Part shown: positions 1 to 11,877 of the stretch, in pieces
Numbering within the stretch: position 1 is the stretch's first letter
How the letters are laid out: each line of letters begins with the position of its first letter
From: an uncultured Chloroflexia bacterium
Lineage (GTDB): Bacteria; Chloroflexota; Limnocylindria; Limnocylindrales; CSP1-4
Assembly: GCA_963833225.1 (NCBI GenBank)
Contig: CAWHXD010000008.1
Location: 864,001-928,000, forward strand
Direction of reading: 5' to 3'
Length of the DNA stretch: 64,000 nucleotides
The notes under the pieces: generated by a model
Told to the model about the DNA's origin: nothing
Databases searched by the model: none
The model's input: only the letters and a program-made list of their open reading frames with translations
Made by a program: the position numbers and the translations under genes

Positions 1-311
1 ATGTCGTGTTCCCGGCAGCCATGGCGGGGCTTGCCGTCGGGCTGATCGCCGGACGGCGAGAGGTCGTGGCGGCCGCGGCCGGGATCGTCTTCGGGGTGGG
101 GTTGTCCCTCGCCATGGGACCGGCCATCGGGATCGTGGTCGGCGGGCTCGTGGGGCCACTGGCCGGGATGGCCGTGCCGGCAGCGCCGGATCGCGGCGAC
201 GAGGGACACCCGCCGTCACCCGTGTCTCTGGGGACGAGCCACCTGGACGAGGCGCTCCGCGAGCTGGACACCGTGCCTGCCGACGTCCCGGACCCGGAGA
301 CGGGGCGATGA
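1..311 (+). CDS. AzlC-family branched-chain amino acid exporter, C-terminal part (5' truncated)
   Basis: Hydrophobic 'FPAAMAGLAVGL...' segment; stop overlaps the start of the AzlD-like gene (ATGA). Confidence 0.6.
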   Translation, partial: VVFPAAMAGLAVGLIAGRREVVAAAAGIVFGVGLSLAMGPAIGIVVGGLVGPLAGMAVPAAPDRGDEGHPPSPVSLGTSHLDEALRELDTVPADVPDPETGR

Positions 312-634
312 CCACGGAGCTCGTCCTGCTCGCGATGCTGATGGCCGCCGTCACGTACCCGTCCCGGGCGATCCCGCTGCTCGCGCCCGGGATCGAGCGC
401 CTGCCGCCGGCCGCGCTGCAGTACCTGCGGCTGGTGGGGCCCGCGGTGCTCGCCTCGCTGGCGGCGGTCAACACCCTCGTCGTCGGCGGCCAGGACGGAC
501 CGCGAACCCTCCACGTCGGCATCGAGACGATCGCTGTCCTGGCCTGCGTCGCCCTCGTCGCCTGGCGCCGGAACCTGTTCCTGGGGCTCGTCCTGGCGGT
601 CGCGATGGTCGCGCTCCTGCGGGCGATCGGGTAG
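308..634 (+). CDS. AzlD domain membrane protein
   Basis: 108 aa hydrophobic; 'MAAVTYPSRAIP...LQYLRLVGPAVLASL...WRRNL' is the typical AzlD pattern. Confidence 0.75.
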   Translation: MTTELVLLAMLMAAVTYPSRAIPLLAPGIERLPPAALQYLRLVGPAVLASLAAVNTLVVGGQDGPRTLHVGIETIAVLACVALVAWRRNLFLGLVLAVAMVALLRAIG

Positions 635-742
635 CCCGCGCATTTCCACTTGACGCCGAGGCCAAGACGGGGAACGCTTGGAGCCTCGGGACCGTGGCTG
701 CCCCACGCGCCCATGCCCACATCTCATCCCGGAGGAGAGCAC

Positions 743-3700
743 ATGCACCGGAGGAGGCTCCTCATCACGATCGGCGCATCCGCGCTGATCGCCCTCGGCT
801 CGCTGCCGCTACCCGCGTTCGCCGCGGGTCCCGACCGCGTTCCACAGCAGATCGACTTCAGCAAGATCGATCCGACCTTCCGCTCCCGCCTGGCAGAGAC
901 CAACCAGCCGGTCAACGTCGTCCTCGAGCTGGCCGCCCGGCCCGCGATCGGCGTCGCCACCACCCGCGCCGGCCAGCAGGCCGCAGCCGAGCGGCTGCGC
1001 ACCGCCCAGAAGCCCGTCGTCGCCGCGGTCAACAAGACCGGCGCCAAGGTCATGGCCCGCTACCAGTACGCCTACAACGGCCTCCGCGTCCGGACCAAGA
1101 TGGGCAAGCTCGGCGAGCTTGCCGCCATCCCCGGCGTCGTCGCCGTCCGGCCGCTGCGCACCTACGAGCGCACGAACGTGACCGGCGTGCCCGCCATCGG
1201 CGGTCCGGTGGCGTGGGAGCAGAGCGGCGCCACGGGCGCTGGTGTGGTCGTCGCGGTCGTCGATACCGGCATCGACTACACCCACGCCAACTTCGGCGGG
1301 CCCGGGACCGAGGAAGCCTACGCGGAGAACGATCCGCTGACGATCGAGGCCGGCACCTTCCCGACCCGGAAGGTCATCGCCGGCTACGACTTCGCCGGCA
1401 ACGACTACGACGCCAACGGCGACGCCGGCTCGACCACCCCGACGCCCGACGAGGACCCGCTCGACTGCGGCGCCCACGGCAGCCACGTGGCCGGCACGAT
1501 CGCCGGCGAGGGCGTGCTCGCGGACCACTCGACCTACACGGGCACCTACAACGAGTCCACCATCGGCGACCCCGCCGACTGGACGATCGGCCCGGGCGTC
1601 GCCCCCGAGGCCAAGCTCGTGGCCCTCAAGGTCTTCGGCTGCGAAGGCTCGACCGATCTCGTCGTCGACGCGCTCGAATGGGTCGGCGAGTACAACGCCA
1701 CGCACGTCGTCGGCATCGACGTCGTCAACATGAGCCTCGGATCCCCGTTCGGCGACTCGACCGATGTCGACGCCGTCGCCTCCAACAACCTGGTCGCCTC
1801 GGGCGTCGTGGTCGTCGCCTCGGCCGGCAACGAATCCTCGGTGCCGTTCATCACCGGCGCCCCGGCCGTCGCCACGGGCGCGATCAGCGTCGCCGCCTAT
1901 GACGCCACGCCCTCGCTGCCGATGGCGACCATCGAGAACTCGGGTGACGACATCCCGGCCATCAACCAGAACGCCTACCCGGGCCTGCCGGTCAGCGGCG
2001 ACCTCCACGTCCTGAGCGACGGTGGCAGCGGCGTCAGCCTCGGCTGCGAGGTCGGCGACTATGACCTCGCAACCGAGGGGACGATCGTCGCGGTCAAGCG
2101 CGGCGACTGCCCCTTCGTGGACAAGGGTGCGGCGGCCGAGGCCGCAGGTGCCATCGGCATCATCGTGATCAACCGCGATGACACCGATCCCGGAGACCTG
2201 CCGACCTTCATCGGGTACAACCCCGAGGAGTTCGAGATCCCGATGATCGGGACCGACAAGACGGCCCAGGCGGACCTGATGGCGATCGACGGCGAGGCCA
2301 TCAACCTGGTCTCCGCCGGCACGCGAGGCCAACCCGACCTACAGCGAGATCACGGACTTCTCGTCCTCCGGCCCGCGCTGGGGCGACAACGCGCTCAAGC
2401 CCGACGTCGCCGCCCCCGGCGCCAACGTCATCTCGACCCTCAATGGCAGCGGCTGGAAGGGCACGACGTACAGCGGCACCTCGATGGCCGCCCCGATGAC
2501 CTCGGGCGCCGCGGCCCTCGTCATCCAGGCCCACCCGGCCTGGCCGCCGCTCAAGGTCAAGGCCGCCCTGGTCAACACCGCCGACGCCGACATCGTCGTC
2601 GACTACAGCCCCGAGCGGGCCGGATCCGGCCTGATCGCCGCTGACCGGGCAACTGAAGGCGAACGTCGTCGCCACGACCGGCGCGGCGACCGCCTCGCTG
2701 TCCTACGGGTACGTCCGCGCCAGCGGGGCGTGGTCGGCCAGCAAGACGATCACCATCTGGAACGACGGCATCGAGCCGGCCACCTACACGCTTGCGGCGA
2801 GCTCGTCGCTCGTCACCCTGTCCCCCACGACCGTGACGGTCCCGGCGGGCTCGTCGATGGACGTCGTCGCCACGGCCCACCTGTCCAAGGCGACCGTGAG
2901 GGCGCTCGACACCGTCGACCAGTTCCTGACCGGTGACTTCACCGGCCTGTTCACGATGAGCGGCGTGGTGGTCGCCACCCCGTCCGGGTCGATCACCGGC
3001 CAGCAGTCGCTCCGGATCCCGTATCTCGCGGTGCCGCGCGGCGTGTCCAACGTCGTCGCAACGCAGGCCAGGAACTGGTCCTCGGCGGCCGGCATCAAGT
3101 CCGGCAAGCTCCGGCTCACCAACTCGGCCGGGCACTCGGGCTGGGCTGATGTCTACGCCCTTGGCTTCAAGGATCCGTCCGGCGACGGCGCGCACGGCAC
3201 GGACGTGGCCGCCGCAGGCGTCAAGGTCGAGTCGGCCGAGGCGCTCGGGGTCGACGATCCCGACGATCGCGCCATCACCTTCGCCGTCAACATGCACGAC
3301 CGGTTCTCAACGGCGGCGCCGCACGAGATCGACGTCGCCGTCGACGTGGACGGTGACGGCAGCGCGGACGCGTACGTCATCGCCTACGACGTCGGACTGC
3401 TGTTTGCCGGTGCGTACTCCGGGCAGACCCTGTCCCTGATCACCGACGCCGACTTCAACATCATCGACTACTGGGAGGCGAATACGCCGCTCAACGGGTC
3501 CACGATGCTGCTGCCGGTGCTCGCGTCGGAGCTCGGTCTCGCGGACGGCGCCGGCTCATTCAAGTACCGGGTCTACGCCTTCGACGGCTACACCGGTGAC
3601 GCCGACATGACGAAGTGGTCGAAGACGTTTGACGCCTACGACCCCACGATCTCGACCGGCAAGTTCAAGGAAGTCGACGCCAAGTCGGCGACCAAGGTCA

Positions 3701-3807
3701 AGGTCTGGTTCAACAAGGCCGACGCGCCGCGCGGCTGGATGGTCGTCACCCTCGACGACTGGAACAACTCCCAGGCCGACATCGTGCGGGTGCCCCTCAA
3801 GAAGTAG
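743..3807 (+). CDS. Secreted S8 subtilisin-like protease with propeptide and PA domain (frameshifts ~2325, ~2655)
   Basis: RBS GGAGGAG 731-737; signal peptide; VDTG, HGSHVAG and (shifted frame) KPDVAAPG...SGTSMAAP catalytic motifs; PA motif 'KRGDCPFVDK'. Confidence 0.9.
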
Positions 3808-3920: not shown

Positions 3921-5171
3921 TCACAGCGCCGCGCCCGCCCGGGCCAGCCGTTCGGCCCGCCACCGACCCACCTCCGGGTCCCGCCCGATGGCCGCGATCA
4001 GCGCCGCCAGCATCGTCGTGCGGGGCACGATGGAGGCGACCTCCAGGTACTCGCCAGGTGAGTGATCCAACCCGCCGATGGGTCCCAGGCCGTCGATCGT
4101 GGGGACCCCCATCCCGGCCGTCGTGTTGGCATCGGACGCACCACCCGTGGCGGCATCCCGGAGCGGGAAGCCCAGCTGCGCGGCAAGGGCGACCGCATGC
4201 TCCACGAGCCGACCCGAGCGGTCCAGCTTCTCCATCGGCCGGTGGCGGCCGCTCTCGGTGGTCTCGACGGTGACGCCGGGGACCAGCCTGGGGACCAGCG
4301 TCTCGGTGATCGCCGCCTCGACCGCGTCGAGTTCCGCGCCCGTGACGGCCCGCACATCCACCTCCAGTGTGCACCGCGCGGCAACCACGTTGGGCCGCGT
4401 CCCGCCCTCGATCACCCCGACATTGACGGTGACGCCGGGCCAGCGCCCGTTGAGCGTATGGAGGTCCTGCGTGATGCGGGCGGCCTCGAGGATCGCGCTG
4501 CGACCCTTCTCGGGCTCGACGCCGGCATGGCTGGCCCGGCCGTGCACGTTGATGGCCAGGTCCAGCGTGCCCTTGCGCGACGAGACGAGGTCCCCGTTCG
4601 CCCGCGCGCACTCGAGGACCAGGCAGGCGTCGGCCTCTCGAGCGAGCCTGCGGATGTGCGGCGAGGAGGCCGGTGAGCCGATCTCCTCGTCCGGGTTGGC
4701 CACGAACACGAGCCGCGCCAGCGGCACCCCGCCAAGCGCTTCACGCAGCGCGCCGACGGCATACAGCCCGGCGAGCAGCCCGCTCTTCATGTCCGTGACG
4801 CCAGGCCCGGTTGCGATCCCGCCCTGGATCTGGAACGGTCGCTCCGCCGCGCTGCCCTCGTCGAACACGGTGTCCATGTGGCCGATGCACAGCAGGGTTG
4901 GCCCCGCGGGATCCGTCCCGCGCAGCGTCCCCACGACGGTCTCGCCCAGACCCAGGTCGTTGGCATGAACGGTCACCGAGAATCCCAGGGTCCTGAGGCG
5001 CTCGGCCGTCCAGCGCCCGATCACGTCGACCCCGGCCCTGGTGTAGCTGCCGCAGTCCACGTTCACCAGCCGTTCCAGGTCGCCGAGGAAGGCCGGATAG
5101 GTGCGCTCCACGCTCGCCCGGATGGCGGCGAGCTCCCCGGGAAGCACGAGATCGGGATCGGGTGTCGCCAT
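3921..5171 (-). CDS. M20 family metallopeptidase (glutamate carboxypeptidase-like)
   Basis: GHMDTV, GPGVTDMKSG, DEEIGS, GRASHAG, GGASD, C-terminal H(SPGE) motifs; TAGACT -10 seven nt before ATG 5171. Confidence 0.9.
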   Translation of the reverse strand: MATPDPDLVLPGELAAIRASVERTYPAFLGDLERLVNVDCGSYTRAGVDVIGRWTAERLRTLGFSVTVHANDLGLGETVVGTLRGTDPAGPTLLCIGHMDTVFDEGSAAERPFQIQGGIATGPGVTDMKSGLLAGLYAVGALREALGGVPLARLVFVANPDEEIGSPASSPHIRRLAREADACLVLECARANGDLVSSRKGTLDLAINVHGRASHAGVEPEKGRSAILEAARITQDLHTLNGRWPGVTVNVGVIEGGTRPNVVAARCTLEVDVRAVTGAELDAVEAAITETLVPRLVPGVTVETTESGRHRPMEKLDRSGRLVEHAVALAAQLGFPLRDAATGGASDANTTAGMGVPTIDGLGPIGGLDHSPGEYLEVASIVPRTTMLAALIAAIGRDPEVGRWRAERLARAGAAL

Positions 5172-5246
5172 GCCCACCAGTCTATCGGGCGCCGTGGCCC
5201 ATCCGGTCGCTCCCGTCCCCGTCCGCTCGCGTAGAGTGTCCGGACC

Positions 5247-6974
5247 GTGCGACTGCTTGAGATCCGGCTGCTCGAGGGGCCCAACGTCTACCGGCTGGTT
5301 CCGGTGGTCAAGGTCGAGGTCGCCGTCGGCCGGTCGCACGCCTGGCGGGGCTCCCGCTCGCCCTCGAATGACGCCCTGGTGCACCTCGCCCGCGATGTCC
5401 CCGCCCGTGAGTGGCCGGACCCCGTCGCGGATGTCGTGGCCTGGACGCGCCGGCTGCGGGCGGACCACGGGGAGCAGGCGGGGCCGGTCAGGGTCCACCG
5501 GTCCTCGGATGCGGGGCGCTGGGCGATCACCTGGCCGTGGTCGGGTGCGGCACGGGCCAGGCTCGTCGCGGAGGCGGCGGTGGACCTCGCCGGGCGCTCG
5601 GTCTCGCCGGCGCGACACGTCCGGCTGACGATGACCCAGGCCCGCTGGGTCGACGGCTGGGAGGCACGCATCGCCGCAGCCACGGCCGCGCCGCCATCCT
5701 GGATCCGCGATGCCGACCGGCGGATGCCGGTCGCCTCGATCACCGGGACCAACGGCAAGTCCACGGTCACGCGCCTGATAACCCACATCCTGCTGCGGGC
5801 CGGGCGCCACGTCGGCACGACCACCAGCGACGGGATCCTCGTGGACGAGCGGATGATCGAACCGGGCGACTGGACGGGTCCGGGTGGCGCCGCCGCGATC
5901 CTGCACCGATCCGATGTCGACGCGGCGGTGCTGGAGACGGCGCGCGGCGGCCTGGTGCTGCGTGGCATGGGCTACGAGTCCAACGAGGTCTCGGTGTTCA
6001 CCAACGTCTCGTCGGATCACCTCGACCTCCAGGGGATCCACACGCTGCCCGAGCTGGCCGAGCTCAAGGCGACGGTGTGCCGCGTGACCCGGCCCGACGG
6101 GCTCGTGGTCCTCAACGCCGATGACCCGCTGGTGGCCGCCGTCGCGCGTCGGGTCCGGGCCCGGGTCGCGTATTTCTCGATGGATCCGGCGCGCTTCCCG
6201 CAGGTCGCGCGTCACCGGCAGCGCGGCGGGCTGGCGTGGCTGCTGCTGGGCCACCACCTTGTGGAGTGCGAGGGACCGGCAGAGCACGAGCTGCTCGACG
6301 TCGCGGACCTCCCCGTCGCCCTCGGCGGGCTGGCCAAGCACAACGTCGCGAACGCGCTGGCGGCGGCCGGTGGAGCGCGAGGACTCGGAGCGTCACGCGC
6401 CGAGGTCGCCGAGGGCCTGCGCCACTTCCGCCCGACGGCGGACCTGTCCCCCGGCCGGCTCAACCTGTTCCGTTTCGGCCACCAGACGGTGATCATCGAC
6501 TTCGCCCACAACGAGGCCGGGACGGATGCCATCCTCGACGTTGCCGCGGGGATCGCCGGCGGGACCCCTGGGCGCGCTGCGCCGGTGACGGCGATCATCG
6601 GCACGGCGGGCGACCGCCCGGACGACACGCTGCGGGGCATCGCGCGCATCGCCGCCGGGAAGGCCGATCGGGTCGTGATCAAGGAGACGCTCGACTACCT
6701 GCGCGGGCAGGCTCGTGAGCAGATCGTGCGACGGCTGGGGGAGGGCCTGGCGGAGGCGGGCGTCGATCCGGCGACCGTGCCCGTCTACGAGAGCGAGACG
6801 GTGGCCCTGGAGGCGGAGCTCGCCAGGCCAGGGTCGCCCGCGCCCGGCATCGGCGCCGCGGATGCTCCCCGCGTCACGGTCCTGTTCTGCCACCAGGACC
6901 GCGACCAGGTGTTCGCGCTGCTGGAGCGGCTGGGGGCTCGCAGCCTGGATGCGCTCGCCCCGGACCGTGGCTAG
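5247..6974 (+). CDS. CphA-like protein: degenerate N domain plus Mur-ligase (M) domain, no ATP-grasp
   Basis: N-terminus 'MRLLEIRLLEGPNVY' resembles the CphA start; ITGTNGKST, LETARGG, TNVSSDHL, PGRLN, IDFAHN, GDRPD motifs collinear with the CphA M domain; one intact ORF. Confidence 0.85.
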   Translation: MRLLEIRLLEGPNVYRLVPVVKVEVAVGRSHAWRGSRSPSNDALVHLARDVPAREWPDPVADVVAWTRRLRADHGEQAGPVRVHRSSDAGRWAITWPWSGAARARLVAEAAVDLAGRSVSPARHVRLTMTQARWVDGWEARIAAATAAPPSWIRDADRRMPVASITGTNGKSTVTRLITHILLRAGRHVGTTTSDGILVDERMIEPGDWTGPGGAAAILHRSDVDAAVLETARGGLVLRGMGYESNEVSVFTNVSSDHLDLQGIHTLPELAELKATVCRVTRPDGLVVLNADDPLVAAVARRVRARVAYFSMDPARFPQVARHRQRGGLAWLLLGHHLVECEGPAEHELLDVADLPVALGGLAKHNVANALAAAGGARGLGASRAEVAEGLRHFRPTADLSPGRLNLFRFGHQTVIIDFAHNEAGTDAILDVAAGIAGGTPGRAAPVTAIIGTAGDRPDDTLRGIARIAAGKADRVVIKETLDYLRGQAREQIVRRLGEGLAEAGVDPATVPVYESETVALEAELARPGSPAPGIGAADAPRVTVLFCHQDRDQVFALLERLGARSLDALAPDRG

Positions 6975-7651
6975 GACATGCAGTCCGTGCACGCGACGGC
7001 CGAGCGCACGACGACGAACGGGGACGAACCGGCGGCGTTGACCGCCCGCACCACGAACGCGAAGTAGCTGGTCCCGTCGACAGAGGCGAGGACGGGGCCA
7101 TCCACGTCGGCCTCGGGCCACTCCCACGAGACGGATCCCGGCTCGGCGGGACCCTTGGCGATCAGCGTCCGGATCTTGGCCGGGAGCGGCGTGCGGTCGG
7201 TCACGCACGGCGGGTTGTCGGCGGTCGGCTTGTTCGGGCAGGTGGTGATGCCGAACACGCGGATGGAGGTCCCCGGATCAAGGGGCATCGTCCAGGAGAC
7301 GGTGTACCGGGTCATGACGAGTCCACCCTCACCGGTCACGCCAGGGTCGACGTTGTAGTCGAGGCCATCGGGCGCGGCGGGGGGCTCGGTGGCAGCGGGA
7401 GCCGTCGCGGGCGGCTCAGTCATCGGCGGCTCGGTCGCGGCGGGCGACTCGGTGACGACCGGCGTGGCCGGCGGCTCGGACGGCGCCATGGACGCCACCG
7501 GCGAGGGCGTCGCGGACACGCTCGAGGGGCTCGCGGGCAACGACGTGGACGGCGACCCGCCGGCGGAGCATGCCGATGTGACCGTCGCGATCACGAGCGC
7601 GGCACCGACCAGGGCCGTCGCAGGCCAACGGAAGCACGGGACGAGGTGCAT
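6971..7651 (-). CDS. Pro/Thr-rich putative lipoprotein, unknown function
   Basis: RBS GAGGGAG; hydrophobic leader ending in lipobox-like TSAC; PST-rich linker; small C-terminal domain with Cys pairs. Confidence 0.65.
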   Translation of the reverse strand: MHLVPCFRWPATALVGAALVIATVTSACSAGGSPSTSLPASPSSVSATPSPVASMAPSEPPATPVVTESPAATEPPMTEPPATAPAATEPPAAPDGLDYNVDPGVTGEGGLVMTRYTVSWTMPLDPGTSIRVFGITTCPNKPTADNPPCVTDRTPLPAKIRTLIAKGPAEPGSVSWEWPEADVDGPVLASVDGTSYFAFVVRAVNAAGSSPFVVVRSAVACTDCMS

Positions 7652-7788
7652 CTTGGTCTCCCTCTCTTGCCTCGAGGCGGGGGCGGGGGCAACGAGCCTG
7701 CTCCCCCGATGCGGCTGGGACGGCAGTGGACGGCGGGATGCGACGTGCGAGCCGGTTTCGGCCCGACCCGGGCCGACGTGGACGCGTT

Positions 7789-7863
7789 CCCCGGCGGTTC
7801 GCCCCCGGGCTCCCGGCGGTTCGCCCTCCCGCCTCCCGGCGGTTCGCCCCTGGGCTCCCGGCG
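7789..7863. repeat. Three imperfect ~21-22 bp tandem repeats (CCCGGCGGTTCGCCC core)
   Basis: Core CCGGCGGTTCGCCC appears three times, intergenic. Confidence 0.75.
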
Positions 7864-7995
7864 CTCAAGCGGTTGCGCGGTGGGGCGATCCGGGCTGCTG
7901 GAGACCCATTCGTCACGCGGAGGGGATGAGGTGCGTGACACACCGGGCGCCGGGGGCCAGATTCGACTCACAACGCGCTGGTTGGGGCGCGCACC

Positions 7996-8048
7996 GCCCG
8001 GCACGTACGACGCGCAAGGCCCGGCACGCACGACGCGCAAGGCCCGGC
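7996..8048. repeat. Two 23-bp tandem repeats GCCCGGCACG(T/C)ACGACGCGCAAG
   Basis: Read directly, just downstream of the cphA stop. Confidence 0.75.
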
Positions 8049-8086
8049 CCGGCGCGCACGGCGCCGCGGCAGCGCCGGGACCGCTG

Positions 8087-10938
8087 CTACCCGAGTGGCG
8101 CCTCGAGCTCTCCCGGGTCCGCAAACGCCGTCCCGCCCTGGCCGCGCCCCGCGAGCGCCATCGCCTGCCGGTAGACGTCGACCGCGTCGTCCGCGCAGAC
8201 CACGACCAGGTCGCCCGGGGCGCACCGCCGGAGCGCGGCCCGCACGGCAGCTGACTCCTCGAGGATCTTCTCGACCTTGATCGCGCGGGCCTCCCCCTCG
8301 CCCCGGACGGCGCGGATCCCGGCGACCACGTTGCCGGCCGTCTCGCCGGGCGCTCGACCACGCAGGTTCCGGTCCTCCCGGATCACGATCTCGTCAAAGG
8401 CGGTTGCCGCGAGCGCGCCGTACTCGCGCTGGTCCTCGTCGCGCCGGTCGCCGGGAATGCCGATGACGCCGATCGCACGCCCGCTGCGCGCAGGCACGGC
8501 GGGGCTGCCCAGCATGCCGGGCCGCGTCTGCGGCTCGACCATCATCCGGTTCACGAAGTCGGCAAGCTGCCGCATGCCGTCCACGTTGTGGCAGTAGTCG
8601 ATGACCACCCGGGTGCCGGCGACCTCGACCATGTTGAGGCGGCCGGGGGCCTGGAAGAACGACGTGGTGAAGGTGCGCAGGCCCTGGCGGATGTCGTGCA
8701 GGTGGGCCCCCATGGACCACGCGGCCGCAGCGGCGGCCAGGGCGTTGGCCACGTTCATCCGCGCGCGGCCGCCGAAGGTGGACGGCATCAGGTGCGTGTA
8801 CAGCACCGGCATCTTGCGAGGGCCGTGCTTGAGCACGATCAGCTCGCCCTGTGGCGTGTCCTCGAGGCAGAACGCGGCGTTGCCGCGGTTGGTGTGGCCG
8901 TCGACCCGGTCGTAGCCGTCCTCTCCCTTGTCCTTGGCCATGCTGAACAGCACGACCCGGCCGTCGCAATGGCGGCCCATGCGGTAGACGAGATGGTTGT
9001 CGGCGTTGAGCACGGCCGTCCCGGAGCGGGGTACCGCCTCGACGACGACGCCCTTGACCCCCGCGAGCTGGCCGACGGTATCGATGCCGCCGAGACCCAG
9101 GTGATCGCCGGTCACGTTGGTGACCACGGCCACGTCGTTGCGGTCGTAGCCCAGCCCCTCCCGCAGGATGCCGCCGCGGGCCACCTCGAACACGGCCGTG
9201 TCCACGGTCGGGTTCTGGAGCACCATCTGGGCGCTCTTGGGCCCGGACATGTCGCCGCGCTTGATCAGCCGGCCGTCGATCACGATCCCGTCGGTGGACG
9301 TCATGCCGACCCGCTTGCCCATCAGCTTGAGGATGTGGGCGATCATCCGGACGGTCGTCGTCTTGCCGTTGGTGCCGGTCACGGCAACGATCGGGATGCG
9401 CGCCGTGGCACCTGCCGGGAAGAGCAGGTCGATGACGGGCTTCGCGACGTACTGCGGCTCGCCCTCCGTGGGGTGGGTGTGCATCCGGAACCCGGGCGCC
9501 GCGTTGACCTCGACGATCCCACCACCGGTCTCGCGGACGGGGACCTCGATGTCAGGGCAGATGAAGTCGATGCCGGCGATGTCGAGGCCCACCACCAGCG
9601 CGGCGGTCTCGGCGATCTCGATGTTGTCGGGATGCGCCTCCATCGTGCGATCGATCGAGGTGCCGCCGGTCGACATGTTGCCCGTGAGGGCCAGCTTGAC
9701 GAACGCGCCCTTGTCGGGGACCGAGTCAGTGGTGTAGTCCTGTCCGGCCAGGACGCCCTCGGCGGCGGCGTCGAGGCTGATCCGGGTCAGCACCTTCTCG
9801 TGCCCGATGCCACGGCGGGGATCGGCGTTCGCCTCCTCGACCAGCTCGCGCACGGTGCTGGTGCCATCGCCGGTGACGCTGGCCGGGACCCGCTCCGCGA
9901 CCGCGGCGACCTTGCCGCCGATCACCAGGCAGCGGTAGTCGCGACCGGTGATGAAGCTCTCGACGACCACGTCCCCGCCGCGGCTCTGGCGGACCGTCTC
10001 CGGCCAGGCGGCACGGACCACGGCCTCGTCCTGCAGGTCAAGCGCGACGCCGCGGCCGTGGTTGCCGTCGAGCGGCTTGATCACGCACGGATAGCCGATC
10101 CGGCGCGCGGCGGCCACCGCGTCGTCCTCGGTGTCGACCACCTCGGAGTGCGGCACCGGGAGCCCAGCCGAGTCGAGAAGGCGGTTGGTCAGCTTCTTGT
10201 CCGACGCGATGTCGACGGCGATGCCGCCCGTCCGGCTGGTCATCGTGGCCCGGATCCGCTGCTGGTGGACGCCCTGGCCCAGCTGGACCAGGCTGTAGCG
10301 GTCGAGGCGGATGAACGGGATGTCGCGGCCGGCAGCCTCGTCGAGGAGCGCCTGGGTGGACGGCCCGAAGGCCAGCCGCTCCGCGAGCCGGATGAGGGAT
10401 TCCAGCTCGGGCACCAGTCGAACGCGAAGGCCTCGTCGTGGGGAGCCACCAGGTGGTTGACCAGCGCGACGGCCTTGCGGCCCGCCTCGAGGCCGACCTG
10501 CTCCTCGCGGTACTCGAAGATCACGTTGTAGCGGCCATGCTCACCGGTGCCGCGCGTCTTGCCGTGGCGGACCGCCATGCCGGCCAGATTCTGGAACTCG
10601 AGCGCGATGTGCTCGGCCACGTGGCCCGCCCAGGTCCCATCGCGGAGCCGGGTGATGAAGCCGCCGCGGCGGCCGAGCGAGCAGGCGTGGTCCTCGAGGC
10701 TGGGGAGGATCTCCACCAGGGCATCCACGAAGCCGGGGATCGTGTTGCTCGGGTACTCCTCCAGCACACCCAGGTCCACGACCTCTCGGATCACGGGCTC
10801 GCGGGCCCAGTAGTTGGCACCGCGCAGGACACGGGTCTCGAGGATGCGCAGGGTGGGTTGCGGGCCAGCGGCCGTTGGCTCGGGGGCGGCGGCGCGCGAT
10901 CGCGACCGCTTCGGGGTACCGGGATCCGCCTGGGACAC
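8087..10938 (-). CDS. cphA: Cyanophycin synthetase (frameshift ~10415)
   Basis: N domain with C-x19-HVAEH; FGPST; ATP-grasp KPLDGNHGRGV and EVNAAPGFRMH; M domain VTGTNGKTTT, EVARGG, DYCHN. Confidence 0.95.
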
Positions 10939-11046: not shown

Positions 11047-11877
11047 TCAGCTCGAGGCGATCTCGCCCTGGATCGACTGCAGGTTCGGTCCCACGACACG
11101 CGTCCGCCGGCGCAGGTCGAAGCGGTAGCCGTCCGGCAGGCTGTGGAGCACGACCCCGCTGATCATCAGGGGGCGATGGCCCCGGATCTCCCAGGCGTCG
11201 GTCTCGGACGCCGCGCCGTCGACGACGGTGATCGAGCCACGGCCGATGACCTCCATCACCTGGTCCGGGCCGACGACGCCCGCGGTGTCCTCGTCCACGC
11301 CAAGGCCGAGGAGCGACGGGTTCTGGGCGATCAGCGACAGCAGCGCCCCAGGCGGTTGCGCTGCTGGAAGTGCTGGTCGACGATGACGCCCGGCAGCAGC
11401 CCGAGACCCGCCGCGATCTGGGCCATCCGATGCTTGGGCGTGGCGCCCGAGGCCCCAAAGGCGATCATGTGCGACGATCGCGCTTGCGCCCGCCGAGGTC
11501 CCGGCGACGACGGCGCCCGTCATGAACCGGGACATGATCGCCTCCGCGAGACGCGTCCCGCCCAGCATCGACGACAGTCGCAGCTGGTTGCCGCCGGTCA
11601 TGAAGATGCCGCTCGACTCGCCCACGATCCGGGCGTTGTGCTCGTCGTTGGCCTGCATCCGGGTCACCGCGTTGAGCGGCACGACCTCGCCGGCGCCGAG
11701 CTCGGTAAACACGGAGCGGTAGCGATCCCCGGCCTCCATCCCGAACGAGCTGGCCGTGGCGATCACCGCGATCTTCGCCTCAGGGCCGCCGGCGAGCGCG
11801 ACGAACCGGCCGAGGATGACCCGGTCGCGAACCTTGTCCTCCGCTCCGCCGATGACGATCACGGTTCCGTGCGGCAT
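11047..11877 (-). CDS. cphB: Cyanophycinase (compensating frameshifts ~11345-11475)
   Basis: IGGAEDK, FMTGGNQLRL, GTSAGA nucleophile, alternate-frame IVDQHF..RNR, GVDEDT; directly upstream of cphA. Confidence 0.92.
   Translation of the reverse strand: MPHGTVIVIGGAEDKVRDRVILGRFVALAGGPEAKIAVIATASSFGMEAGDRYRSVFTELGAGEVVPLNAVTRMQANDEHNARIVGESSGIFMTGGNQLRLSSMLGGTRLAEAIMSRFMTGAVVAGTSAGASAIVAHDRLWGLGRHAQASDGPDRGGSRAAAGRHRRPALPAAQPPGALLSLIAQNPSLLGLGVDEDTAGVVGPDQVMEVIGRGSITVVDGAASETDAWEIRGHRPLMISGVVLHSLPDGYRFDLRRRTRVVGPNLQSIQGEIASS

Follow-up and report, generated by a model that had tools for sequence, protein, structure and literature searches.

We analysed a 64,000-nt stretch of DNA (hereafter the window; G+C content about 72%) that comprises positions 864,001 to 928,000 of contig CAWHXD010000008.1, from an uncultured Chloroflexia bacterium assigned to the class Limnocylindria of the Chloroflexota (assembly GCA_963833225.1; 3.89 Mb in 20 contigs, estimated completeness 86%). 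Here, the cyanophycin genes cphA1 and cphB are accompanied by a further gene of the CphA family, whose product joins an N-terminal (N) domain to a Mur-ligase (M) domain without the ATP-grasp (G) domain of CphA1. We call it the N+M gene. Its open reading frame (ORF) begins with a GTG codon, has zero internal stops and encodes 575 amino acids (aa), with RLLEIRLLEGPNVY at aa 2-15. As read in a preliminary description of this DNA, the ORF is intact and the M-domain motifs named there are all present in the translation (GTNGKST at 167-173, ETARGG at 230-235, DHL at 257-259 and DFAHN at 418-422). No HxxEH motif occurs anywhere in the 575-aa translation, so that the protein has no Cx19HxxEH site.

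The same description had stated that the start of the protein mirrors that of the neighbouring CphA, a fragment of which contains LRILETRVLRGANYW. The similarity is present (11/28 identical positions), but with an E-value of 0.002 in a pairwise BLASTP comparison it is weak when taken alone. By the same method, the M domains of the two proteins are 39% identical (E 6e-62).

Domain architecture of the N+M protein and integrity of its gene

Pfam matched the N+M protein with only two families, Mur_ligase_M (residues 165-375, 75.4 bits, cut-off 24) and Mur_ligase_C (residues 403-528, 33.5 bits, cut-off 28.4), which places it in the Mur ligase superfamily; no ATP-grasp family was matched at E<=0.01. 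PF18921 was likewise not matched at this threshold, nor was it found in 10 diverse members of the family. The fragments of the neighbouring cphA1 matched ten Pfam families, eight of which are ATP-grasp families, and also PF18921.

The NCBIfam model for CphA1, TIGR02068 (cya_phycin_syn), scored 367.3 bits, aligning residues 155-526 with HMM positions 474-836 only. This falls short of its 850-bit cut-off, and the protein is not a CphA1 over its whole length. Scores for other Mur-type ligases were far below both this value and their own cut-offs (MurE 103.5 bits, cut-off 257.3; MurF 50.2, cut-off 288.6; MurD 47.6, cut-off 212; FolC 42.2, cut-off 162.7; PgsB 26.5, cut-off 222.7); across the MurE models the scores were about 103-109 bits, with cut-offs of 257-373 or higher. 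Among PDB sequences, residues 155-525 aligned with residues 483-843 of SuCphA1 (E 1.3e-71), and the best Mur ligase reached E 6e-16. The M domain therefore groups with CphA rather than with MurE or CapB.

We compared the N-terminal region with CphA1 through sequence profiles. An exhaustive HMMER search yielded 9838 proteins with E<=0.001, of which 1220 had E<=1e-30. From the 150 best representatives, an N+M filter that included length and P-loop position retained 65, and 14 were full-length CphA1 of 870-943 aa. A profile of the 65 N-termini matched a profile of the 14 CphA1 N domains with a probability of 99.2% (hhalign; E 3e-19, 147 columns), identifying a CphA-type N domain, and the alignment has a gap in N+M where CphA1 carries the Cys and the loop before the HxxEH helix. 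The N-domain match ends only about 6 residues before the M match begins.

An AlphaFold2 model, for which 50 sequences were aligned, had a mean pLDDT of 90.6 and a pTM of 0.91. In a Foldseek search, CphA1 chains ranked first (E 9e-38). Structural alignment with VIA-align gave Z 40.4 and an rmsd of 2.7 A over 506 residues against TeCphA1 (7wae_A), with model residues 1..563 on chain residues 1..877, and Z 42.0 with an rmsd of 5.3 A against a second CphA1 (7txv_A); the alignments to CphA1 chains span the model from residue 1 to about 565 and the chains over 1..872-877. The best Mur ligase reached Z 26. Together, the profile match and the superposition show that both domains and their packing correspond to CphA1 minus its G domain. 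In SuCphA1, a hydrophobic N-domain loop (Y14, I17) touches the M domain (PMC9262961). Its counterpart in N+M is the GPN loop, G11 and N13 of which are invariant across 50 N+M sequences; by analogy, the polymer site (GPN loop and N/M cleft) appears to be kept.

In the N+M protein, a complete Mur-ligase M domain of the CphA type thus follows immediately on a shortened N domain of the same type. The preliminary description had recognized this layout, N and M without G, as the reverse of CphA2, and the Pfam, TIGR02068 and N-domain profile results bear it out.

Loss of a G domain by misassembly at the N/M junction had been named as a possible source of error. The 120 best homologs listed by a word-indexed search are all 531-624 aa long, 69-91% identical and mostly aligned over 97-100% of the query, under source names such as 'cyanophycin synthetase', 'Mur ligase family protein [Candidatus Limnocylindrales bacterium]' and 'hypothetical protein [Chloroflexi bacterium]'. 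Logan contigs with at least 88% likeness, assembled from short reads of relatives rather than from the source reads, cover 5396-5834, 5472-5758, 5172-5440 and 6239-6948 with 0 gaps, and no indels are reported in them within 5247-6974. Since these contigs bridge the junction and the listed homologs share one length class, the N+M gene is no misassembly. No public sequencing run contained as much as half of the words sampled (best share 0.15), and RNA runs were absent from those listed.

The neighbouring genes are less intact (Table 1). As a correction to the preliminary description, the cphA1 gene lies in two frames in this assembly, owing to a frameshift of 1 base near 10414-10420; an extra C behind 10417 in one relative's contig would restore the frame. 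The middle of cphB (about aa 135-178) is out of frame and fails the family model, and relatives' contigs carry an additional G behind 11342 and an additional GA behind 11475. Given these extra bases, the lesions in cphA1 and cphB would be either assembly indels or strain-specific changes.

Table 1. Features of the N+M locus (nt positions in the window; aa positions in the N+M protein)
Feature	Position (nt)	Position (aa)	Strand	Remarks
N+M gene	5247..6974		+	575 aa + stop; ORF and translation; G-less CphA-family ligase
Shortened CphA-type N domain	5247..5690	1-~148	+	GPN loop aa 11-13; Cys...HxxEH segment missing
M core	5709..6431	155-~395	+	aligns with SuCphA1 483-~720; P-loop GTNGKST 5745-5765, E230, D257-H258 6015-6020, K274
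M lid / Mur_ligase_C	6432..6971	~396-575	+	R404, H421-N422, D456-R457; Pfam 403-528
Predicted specificity loop KETLDYLRGQ	6681-6710	479-488	+	aligns with MurE DNPR-type loop
Divergent intergenic region, M20 start to N+M start	5173..5246			74 bp, sequence read
M20 family metallopeptidase	3921..5172		-	Pfam Peptidase_M20 + M20_dimer; divergent from N+M
cphA1 (N+G+M, Cx19HxxEH)	8087..10938		-	convergent with N+M; TIGR02068 936 bits (775-aa part), 174 bits (N part)
cphB cyanophycinase	11047..11877		-	TIGR02069 167.7 bits in two stretches
226-aa ORF	6971..7651		-	no Pfam match
S8 subtilase with PA domain	650..3807		+	upstream; appears broken into at least two frames

A consensus promoter scan of 4900-8200, which includes the intergenic region between the M20 and N+M genes, returned no sigma-70-like promoter, and its one terminator-like hairpin lies within the N+M ORF, at about chance level. 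By eye, a -10-like TAGAGT stands 9 nt before the N+M GTG (within 5232-5246), and the transcript may be leaderless. Within the upstream S8 subtilase gene, one ORF (650-2644) ends in an Arg-rich tail and a second (2833-3807) matches the C-terminal part of a relative's gene (locus L037).

Linkage to cyanophycin genes and phylogeny

A class-wide search at E<=1e-20 matched 157 of 301 genomes, this one included, and 155 of the 157 had two or more matches. With this genome excluded, the matches fall into two families of the class, f1 (59/91 genomes) and f4 (97/103); the remaining families f2 (0/12), f3 (0/92) and f5 (0/2) had none at this threshold among their 106 genomes. These tallies include six genomes flagged as unpublished (G159, G249, G123, G087, G096 and G296; all f4, all positive).

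We then characterized 20-kb stretches around the N+M match in 20 f1 and 20 f4 genomes with long contigs, none from the six unpublished ones. The gene order was the same in 40/40 loci, with the M20 gene divergent from N+M and cphA1 downstream of it and convergent. The cphB gene follows cphA1 in 38 of the 40; in the other two, cphA1 crosses the edge of the stretch. This order is still kept in f4, where the identity of the N+M protein to the target is only 39-41%.

Across phyla, a scan with the profile of an N+M subgroup ('RRLTGPN'), taking one genome per species, returned 80 loci, of which 20 have an N+M-type gene and 56 have CphA1 only. A CphA1 G-domain match lies in the same locus in 16 of the 20 N+M loci, and one more (L079) has a reduced cphA beside cphB. 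In three others (L073, L130 and L147), no CphA1 was found in the locus DNA examined, and all three assemblies contain CphA1, or parts of it, at other places. Counted over the N+M genomes without visible linkage, CphA1 is encoded elsewhere in 4/5, and none was seen in the fifth (G304). Linkage of homologs to cph genes is therefore supported both within the class (40/40 loci) and in other phyla (16-17/20 loci). Of the three observations that the preliminary description had named as speaking against its reading, namely an M domain grouped with MurE, MurF or CapB, homologs away from cph genes, and a G domain dropped by misassembly, none was made.

N+M genes adjoin cphA1-cphB in Pseudomonadota, Myxococcota, Planctomycetota, Acidobacteriota and Actinomycetota; the record titles of the scan name Lysobacterales, Luteimonas, Steroidobacteraceae, Rubrivivax, Nannocystis, Plesiocystis, Planctomycetaceae, Acidobacteriota, Thermoanaerobaculia, Kribbella, Terrabacter, Nocardioides, Thermomicrobiales, Sphaerobacteraceae and Limnocylindria. 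Proteobacterial, planctomycete and acidobacterial loci usually have the order cphB>cphA1>N+M on one strand. Among the loci examined, the M20 partner occurs in Chloroflexota only. The N+M protein is a conserved, uncharacterised member of cyanophycin clusters in at least six phyla.

Individual loci carry further peculiarities. The cphA of the Thermoanaerobaculia locus L079 (11759-13528), next to N+M, has only partial G-domain matches (q3-87 and q250-335) and, of M, just the first 255 residues; it may be reduced or broken. In six actinomycete loci (L085, L101, L122, L130, L140 and L152), two genes for short-chain reductases of the FabG/FabI type immediately precede the N+M gene, and moaA is close by. 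We take these recurrent neighbours as housekeeping synteny, uninformative about function.

The M20 gene of the window scores 286 bits with NCBIfam PRK06133, under the 349-bit cut-off, and its product is CPG2-like. In this genome (86% complete), no IadA was found over its cut-off and no match to Asparaginase_2 (IaaA) or AstE_AspA_cat (CphZ-type). Because the M20 gene is paired with N+M in 40/40 class loci and no dipeptidase of a known type was matched, the M20 enzyme is a candidate beta-Asp-Arg dipeptidase.

We placed the M domains in a tree with 114 rows (quick IQ-TREE search; support from SH-aLRT only) whose root is the MurE of the same genome; the gene for this MurE lies away from the cph locus. 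All 30 CphA1 rows form one clade (99% SH-aLRT). Outside this clade are 73 of the 81 N+M rows, as three large groups plus two single rows. The group that contains the target includes N+M proteins of the second family of the class. Therefore, the target's M domain does not derive from the neighbouring cphA1, and the earlier view of the gene as a local paralog of that CphA is not upheld. Rather, the tree points to N+M as an old, widespread family, not a recent copy of cphA1.

The remaining eight short rows nest within the CphA1 clade and comprise one fragment and seven proteins of N-M or N-(G remnant)-M layout. These G-less or G-reduced forms (P0222, P0235, P0252, P0267, P0210, P0273 and P0201; 532-645 aa) resemble N+M in that M follows N directly or after a short G remnant, and differ in that their M domains branch inside the CphA1 clade, which suggests independent, repeated and apparently younger losses of G. 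One further protein (P0137, 972 aa) consists of two tandem Mur-ligase M+C modules without N or G; one module branches with CphA1 and the other, on a long branch, with the 'RRLTGPN' N+M group.

Catalytic residues and departures from CphA1

Among 50 N+M sequences, the invariant columns include, besides G11 and N13, G167-K171, T173, R176, G207, D208, E230, R233-G235, N253, D257, H258, K274, N369, R404, N422, D456 and R457, and H421 is at least 90% conserved. K274 is presumably the counterpart of the carbamylated Lys of Mur ligases. We aligned these residues with those of characterized CphA1 enzymes. In TeCphA1, K499, T500, T522, E558, R731 and H748 are named as ATP and Mg ligands in excerpts of PMC9427784; they align with K171, S172, S194, E230, R404 and H421 of N+M, Ser replacing both Thr. 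D257/H258 align with D585/H586 of SuCphA1, whose double mutant is an M-inactive control (PMC9262961). N+M has the residue set that characterizes an active M domain (the Lys of the P-loop, the ligands of Mg, the DH pair, and the Arg and His of the lid), and these residues are invariant or nearly so.

A comparison of 73 N+M and 30 CphA1 M domains, in target numbering, separates the two at several columns. Position 214 is G or A in N+M and S in 27/30 CphA1; position 239 is R in 90% of N+M and E in 17/30 CphA1; and position 279 is R in 35/41 sequences of four N+M subgroups, with a mixture of H, R and K in a fifth, and E in 26/30 CphA1. In the lid, position 481 is T, K or L according to N+M subgroup and D in 28/30 CphA1, position 483 is mostly H, R or K in three N+M subgroups and N or D in 22/30 CphA1, and at position 484 a Tyr is inserted in 60/71 N+M of five subgroups where 28/30 CphA1 have a gap. 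The consensus of the lid loop is accordingly 'KExxxYLRGR' in N+M versus 'EDxN-LRGR' in CphA1; RGR, GDR, PGR and AHN are common to both.

Two of these differences touch sites of known role. Residues 479-488 are aligned to DEDPRGE, the DNPR-type loop in the MurE of this genome; in MurE, the 'DNPR' loop selects the incoming amino acid. Position 279 corresponds by alignment to SuCphA1 E607, which is among the residues that touch cyanophycin bound at the N-domain site (PMC9262961). Since a predicted specificity loop and a polymer-contacting residue both differ consistently from CphA1, the incoming residue or the acceptor may differ as well; the substrate may not be Arg.

Members of the N+M family, as we define it here, measure about 530-620 aa, have an N-terminal GPN loop, an M domain of the CphA type and 'YLRGR' in the lid loop, and are encoded by genes linked to cphA1/cphB. 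The target shows all of these traits.

Proposed function, alternatives and relation to known systems

We consider it very probable that the N+M protein is an active ligase tied to cyanophycin metabolism. Beyond this, we favour, with some reserve, a catalytically competent, stand-alone CphA-family ligase that would act in trans beside a complete CphA1 as a dedicated part of the cyanophycin module, by a mechanism whose steps we infer by analogy with the M domain of CphA1 and with the Mur ligases. ATP would bind at the P-loop (K171), with Mg2+ held by S172, S194 and E230. The carboxylate of a cyanophycin-type acceptor, polymer or oligomer, seated in the N/M cleft would then be phosphorylated, most likely the beta-carboxyl of an un-arginylated C-terminal Asp, with the help of D257/H258 and K274. 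The lid (R404, H421/N422, D456/R457 and Y484/R486) would bind an amino acid, whose alpha-amino group would attack the acyl-phosphate to form an isopeptide bond.

Several observations weigh against this proposal. The acceptor and the incoming amino acid are assigned by homology, and a genome with a complete CphA1 already has an M domain in that enzyme. The acidic residues of CphA1 at positions 279 (E, 26/30) and 481 (D, 28/30) are replaced by R/K/H and T/K/L in N+M, which also has the extra lid-loop Tyr; consequently, its reaction could depart further from that of CphA1 than assumed here. The deepest branches of the M-domain tree lack resolution, and its root is one long MurE branch. In addition, a GPN-like pattern within residues 1-45 was among the criteria by which the 65 N-termini for the profile comparison were picked, a mild selection bias. 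We also considered N+M as a substitute for a dead M domain in the partner CphA1. The partner M domains keep their motifs, in a set where the regex-based labels CphA1 and N+M are unreliable for some rows, and we therefore rejected this role.

A more specific version of the same proposal is that N+M couples Asp beta-carboxyls not to Arg but to another residue, which may be neutral or acidic, or caps or extends chain ends, which would change the composition, solubility or length of the polymer. The columns that separate N+M from CphA1 fit this idea, as they sit in the lid loop that aligns with the MurE DNPR-type loop (481 and 483) and at the cyanophycin contact (279). Against it, the RGR, GDR, PGR and AHN motifs are common to both families, and position 481 varies among N+M subgroups and may not determine specificity; on balance we regard the idea as possible but doubtful. 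N+M might instead be a primer or dipeptide synthetase, ligating Arg at the beta-carboxyl of Asp that is either free or part of a very short peptide, and so providing CphA1 with beta-Asp-Arg units or minimal primers. The minimal primer of CphA1 is (beta-Asp-Arg)-Asp and synthesis can be limited by primer supply (PMC9262961), and N+M is without the N-domain peptidase site that makes primers in CphA1. However, the partner CphA1 has Cx19HxxEH, and is thus of the primer-independent type, in 39/41 class loci (in the two exceptions its N domain lies beyond the locus edge), so that the supply of primers there probably does not depend on N+M; the retention of a polymer-anchoring N domain and of the N/M cleft also favours a polymeric acceptor. 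We consider such a role unlikely.

Could N+M be an accessory subunit of CphA1 oligomers that raises the ratio of M to G sites or has a regulatory effect? Other cph clusters do split labour between paralogs (tandem cphA/cphA' genes with a truncated M in the first copy), and the M core of CphA1 touches the G cores of other protomers. Yet within the class the N+M gene is convergent to cphA1, divergent from the M20 gene and outside the cphA1 operon, and its invariant catalytic residues mark the protein as an enzyme regardless; we judge this role quite improbable. When N+M and the G domain from the neighbouring CphA1 were modelled as a complex, two runs without controls scored 0.00, which is uninformative either way. 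Finally, membership in the Mur ligase superfamily could mean a ligase of cell-wall, folate or poly-gamma-glutamate synthesis that happens to lie near cph genes, and the indels in neighbouring genes of the assembly could mean an artefact of cphA. Both are very hard to reconcile with the low MurE, MurF, MurD, FolC and PgsB scores, the genome's separate MurE-like gene, the cphA1 synteny across phyla, the single length class of the 120 listed homologs and the ungapped contigs of relatives, and we give them very little credence.

Among known systems, N+M is closest to CphA1 (SuCphA1, 7LG5; TeCphA1, 7WAE), with which it shares the N fold, an M domain of about 39-45% identity, the N/M packing and the ATP, Mg and catalytic residues of M. 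Unlike CphA1, it has neither the ATP-grasp G domain of about 330 aa nor the Cx19HxxEH peptidase site of the N domain, and it differs in the lid loop and at position 279. The primer-generating Cx19HxxEH site is present in 83% of CphA1 (PMC9262961). CphA2 resembles N+M as a CphA paralog that gave up one of two ligase activities; excerpts of PMC10273328 describe it as keeping G, with a truncated and inactive M. In contrast, N+M is without G and its M domain is full-length (Mur_ligase_C at 403-528), with catalytic residues intact, and it is therefore no CphA2. MurE and other Mur ligases share the Mur_ligase_M and C fold and the acyl-phosphate motifs, but carry a UDP-binding N-terminal Mur domain where N+M has a CphA-type one (Z 26 versus 40-42 for CphA1).

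The tandem cphA/cphA' pairs of Betaproteobacteria likewise place a second CphA-family gene beside cphA, with the difference that both copies keep G. In the tandem loci seen here (L087, L089, L090, L096, L115, L123, L135 and L151), the first copy has N, G and the first ~250 residues of M; the second has G and a full M, with its N domain matched weakly. They fit the 'neighboring copies' of cphA mentioned in excerpts of PMC10687191.

No Pfam or NCBIfam (release 20) model claims the N+M protein, and the nearest ESM Atlas clusters are automatically named 'hypothetical protein', 'Mur ligase family protein' and 'putative Cyanophycin synthetase'. A literature search that included PMC10206079, PMC9974463 and PMC10687191 found no description of an N+M-only CphA homolog; subscription journals were outside its scope, and an earlier mention is possible. 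Because N+M proteins are labelled 'cyanophycin synthetase', 'Mur ligase family protein' or 'hypothetical', surveys of cphA copies may be counting a different enzyme. In a Terrabacter locus (L122), an N+M gene lies about 1 kb from cphB-cphA1, and Terrabacter is a relative of Tetrasphaera. 'Longer' and 'shorter' cphA copies, both transcribed, are reported for Tetrasphaera metagenome-assembled genomes in excerpts of PMC10687191; in view of the Terrabacter locus, the 'shorter' cphA may belong to the N+M family.

An intact G-less relative of CphA that travels with cphA1-cphB suggests an unstudied step in the making, modifying or recycling of cyanophycin. As a natural isolated M-domain enzyme, N+M would also be of use to enzymology, and could serve to produce cyanophycin variants of industrial interest. 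To our knowledge, cyanophycin synthesis has been attributed to a single enzyme, CphA1, or to CphA2 where re-polymerisation is concerned. We tentatively raise, without expecting it to be the likeliest outcome, that many bacteria of soils and sediments use N+M as a second, so far unrecognised enzyme of cyanophycin biosynthesis, adding a residue other than Arg or capping or extending chain ends. If this were true, the 'cyanophycin' of phyla with N+M would be a chemically different, two-enzyme product, and its composition and solubility would be set by the balance of CphA1 to N+M.

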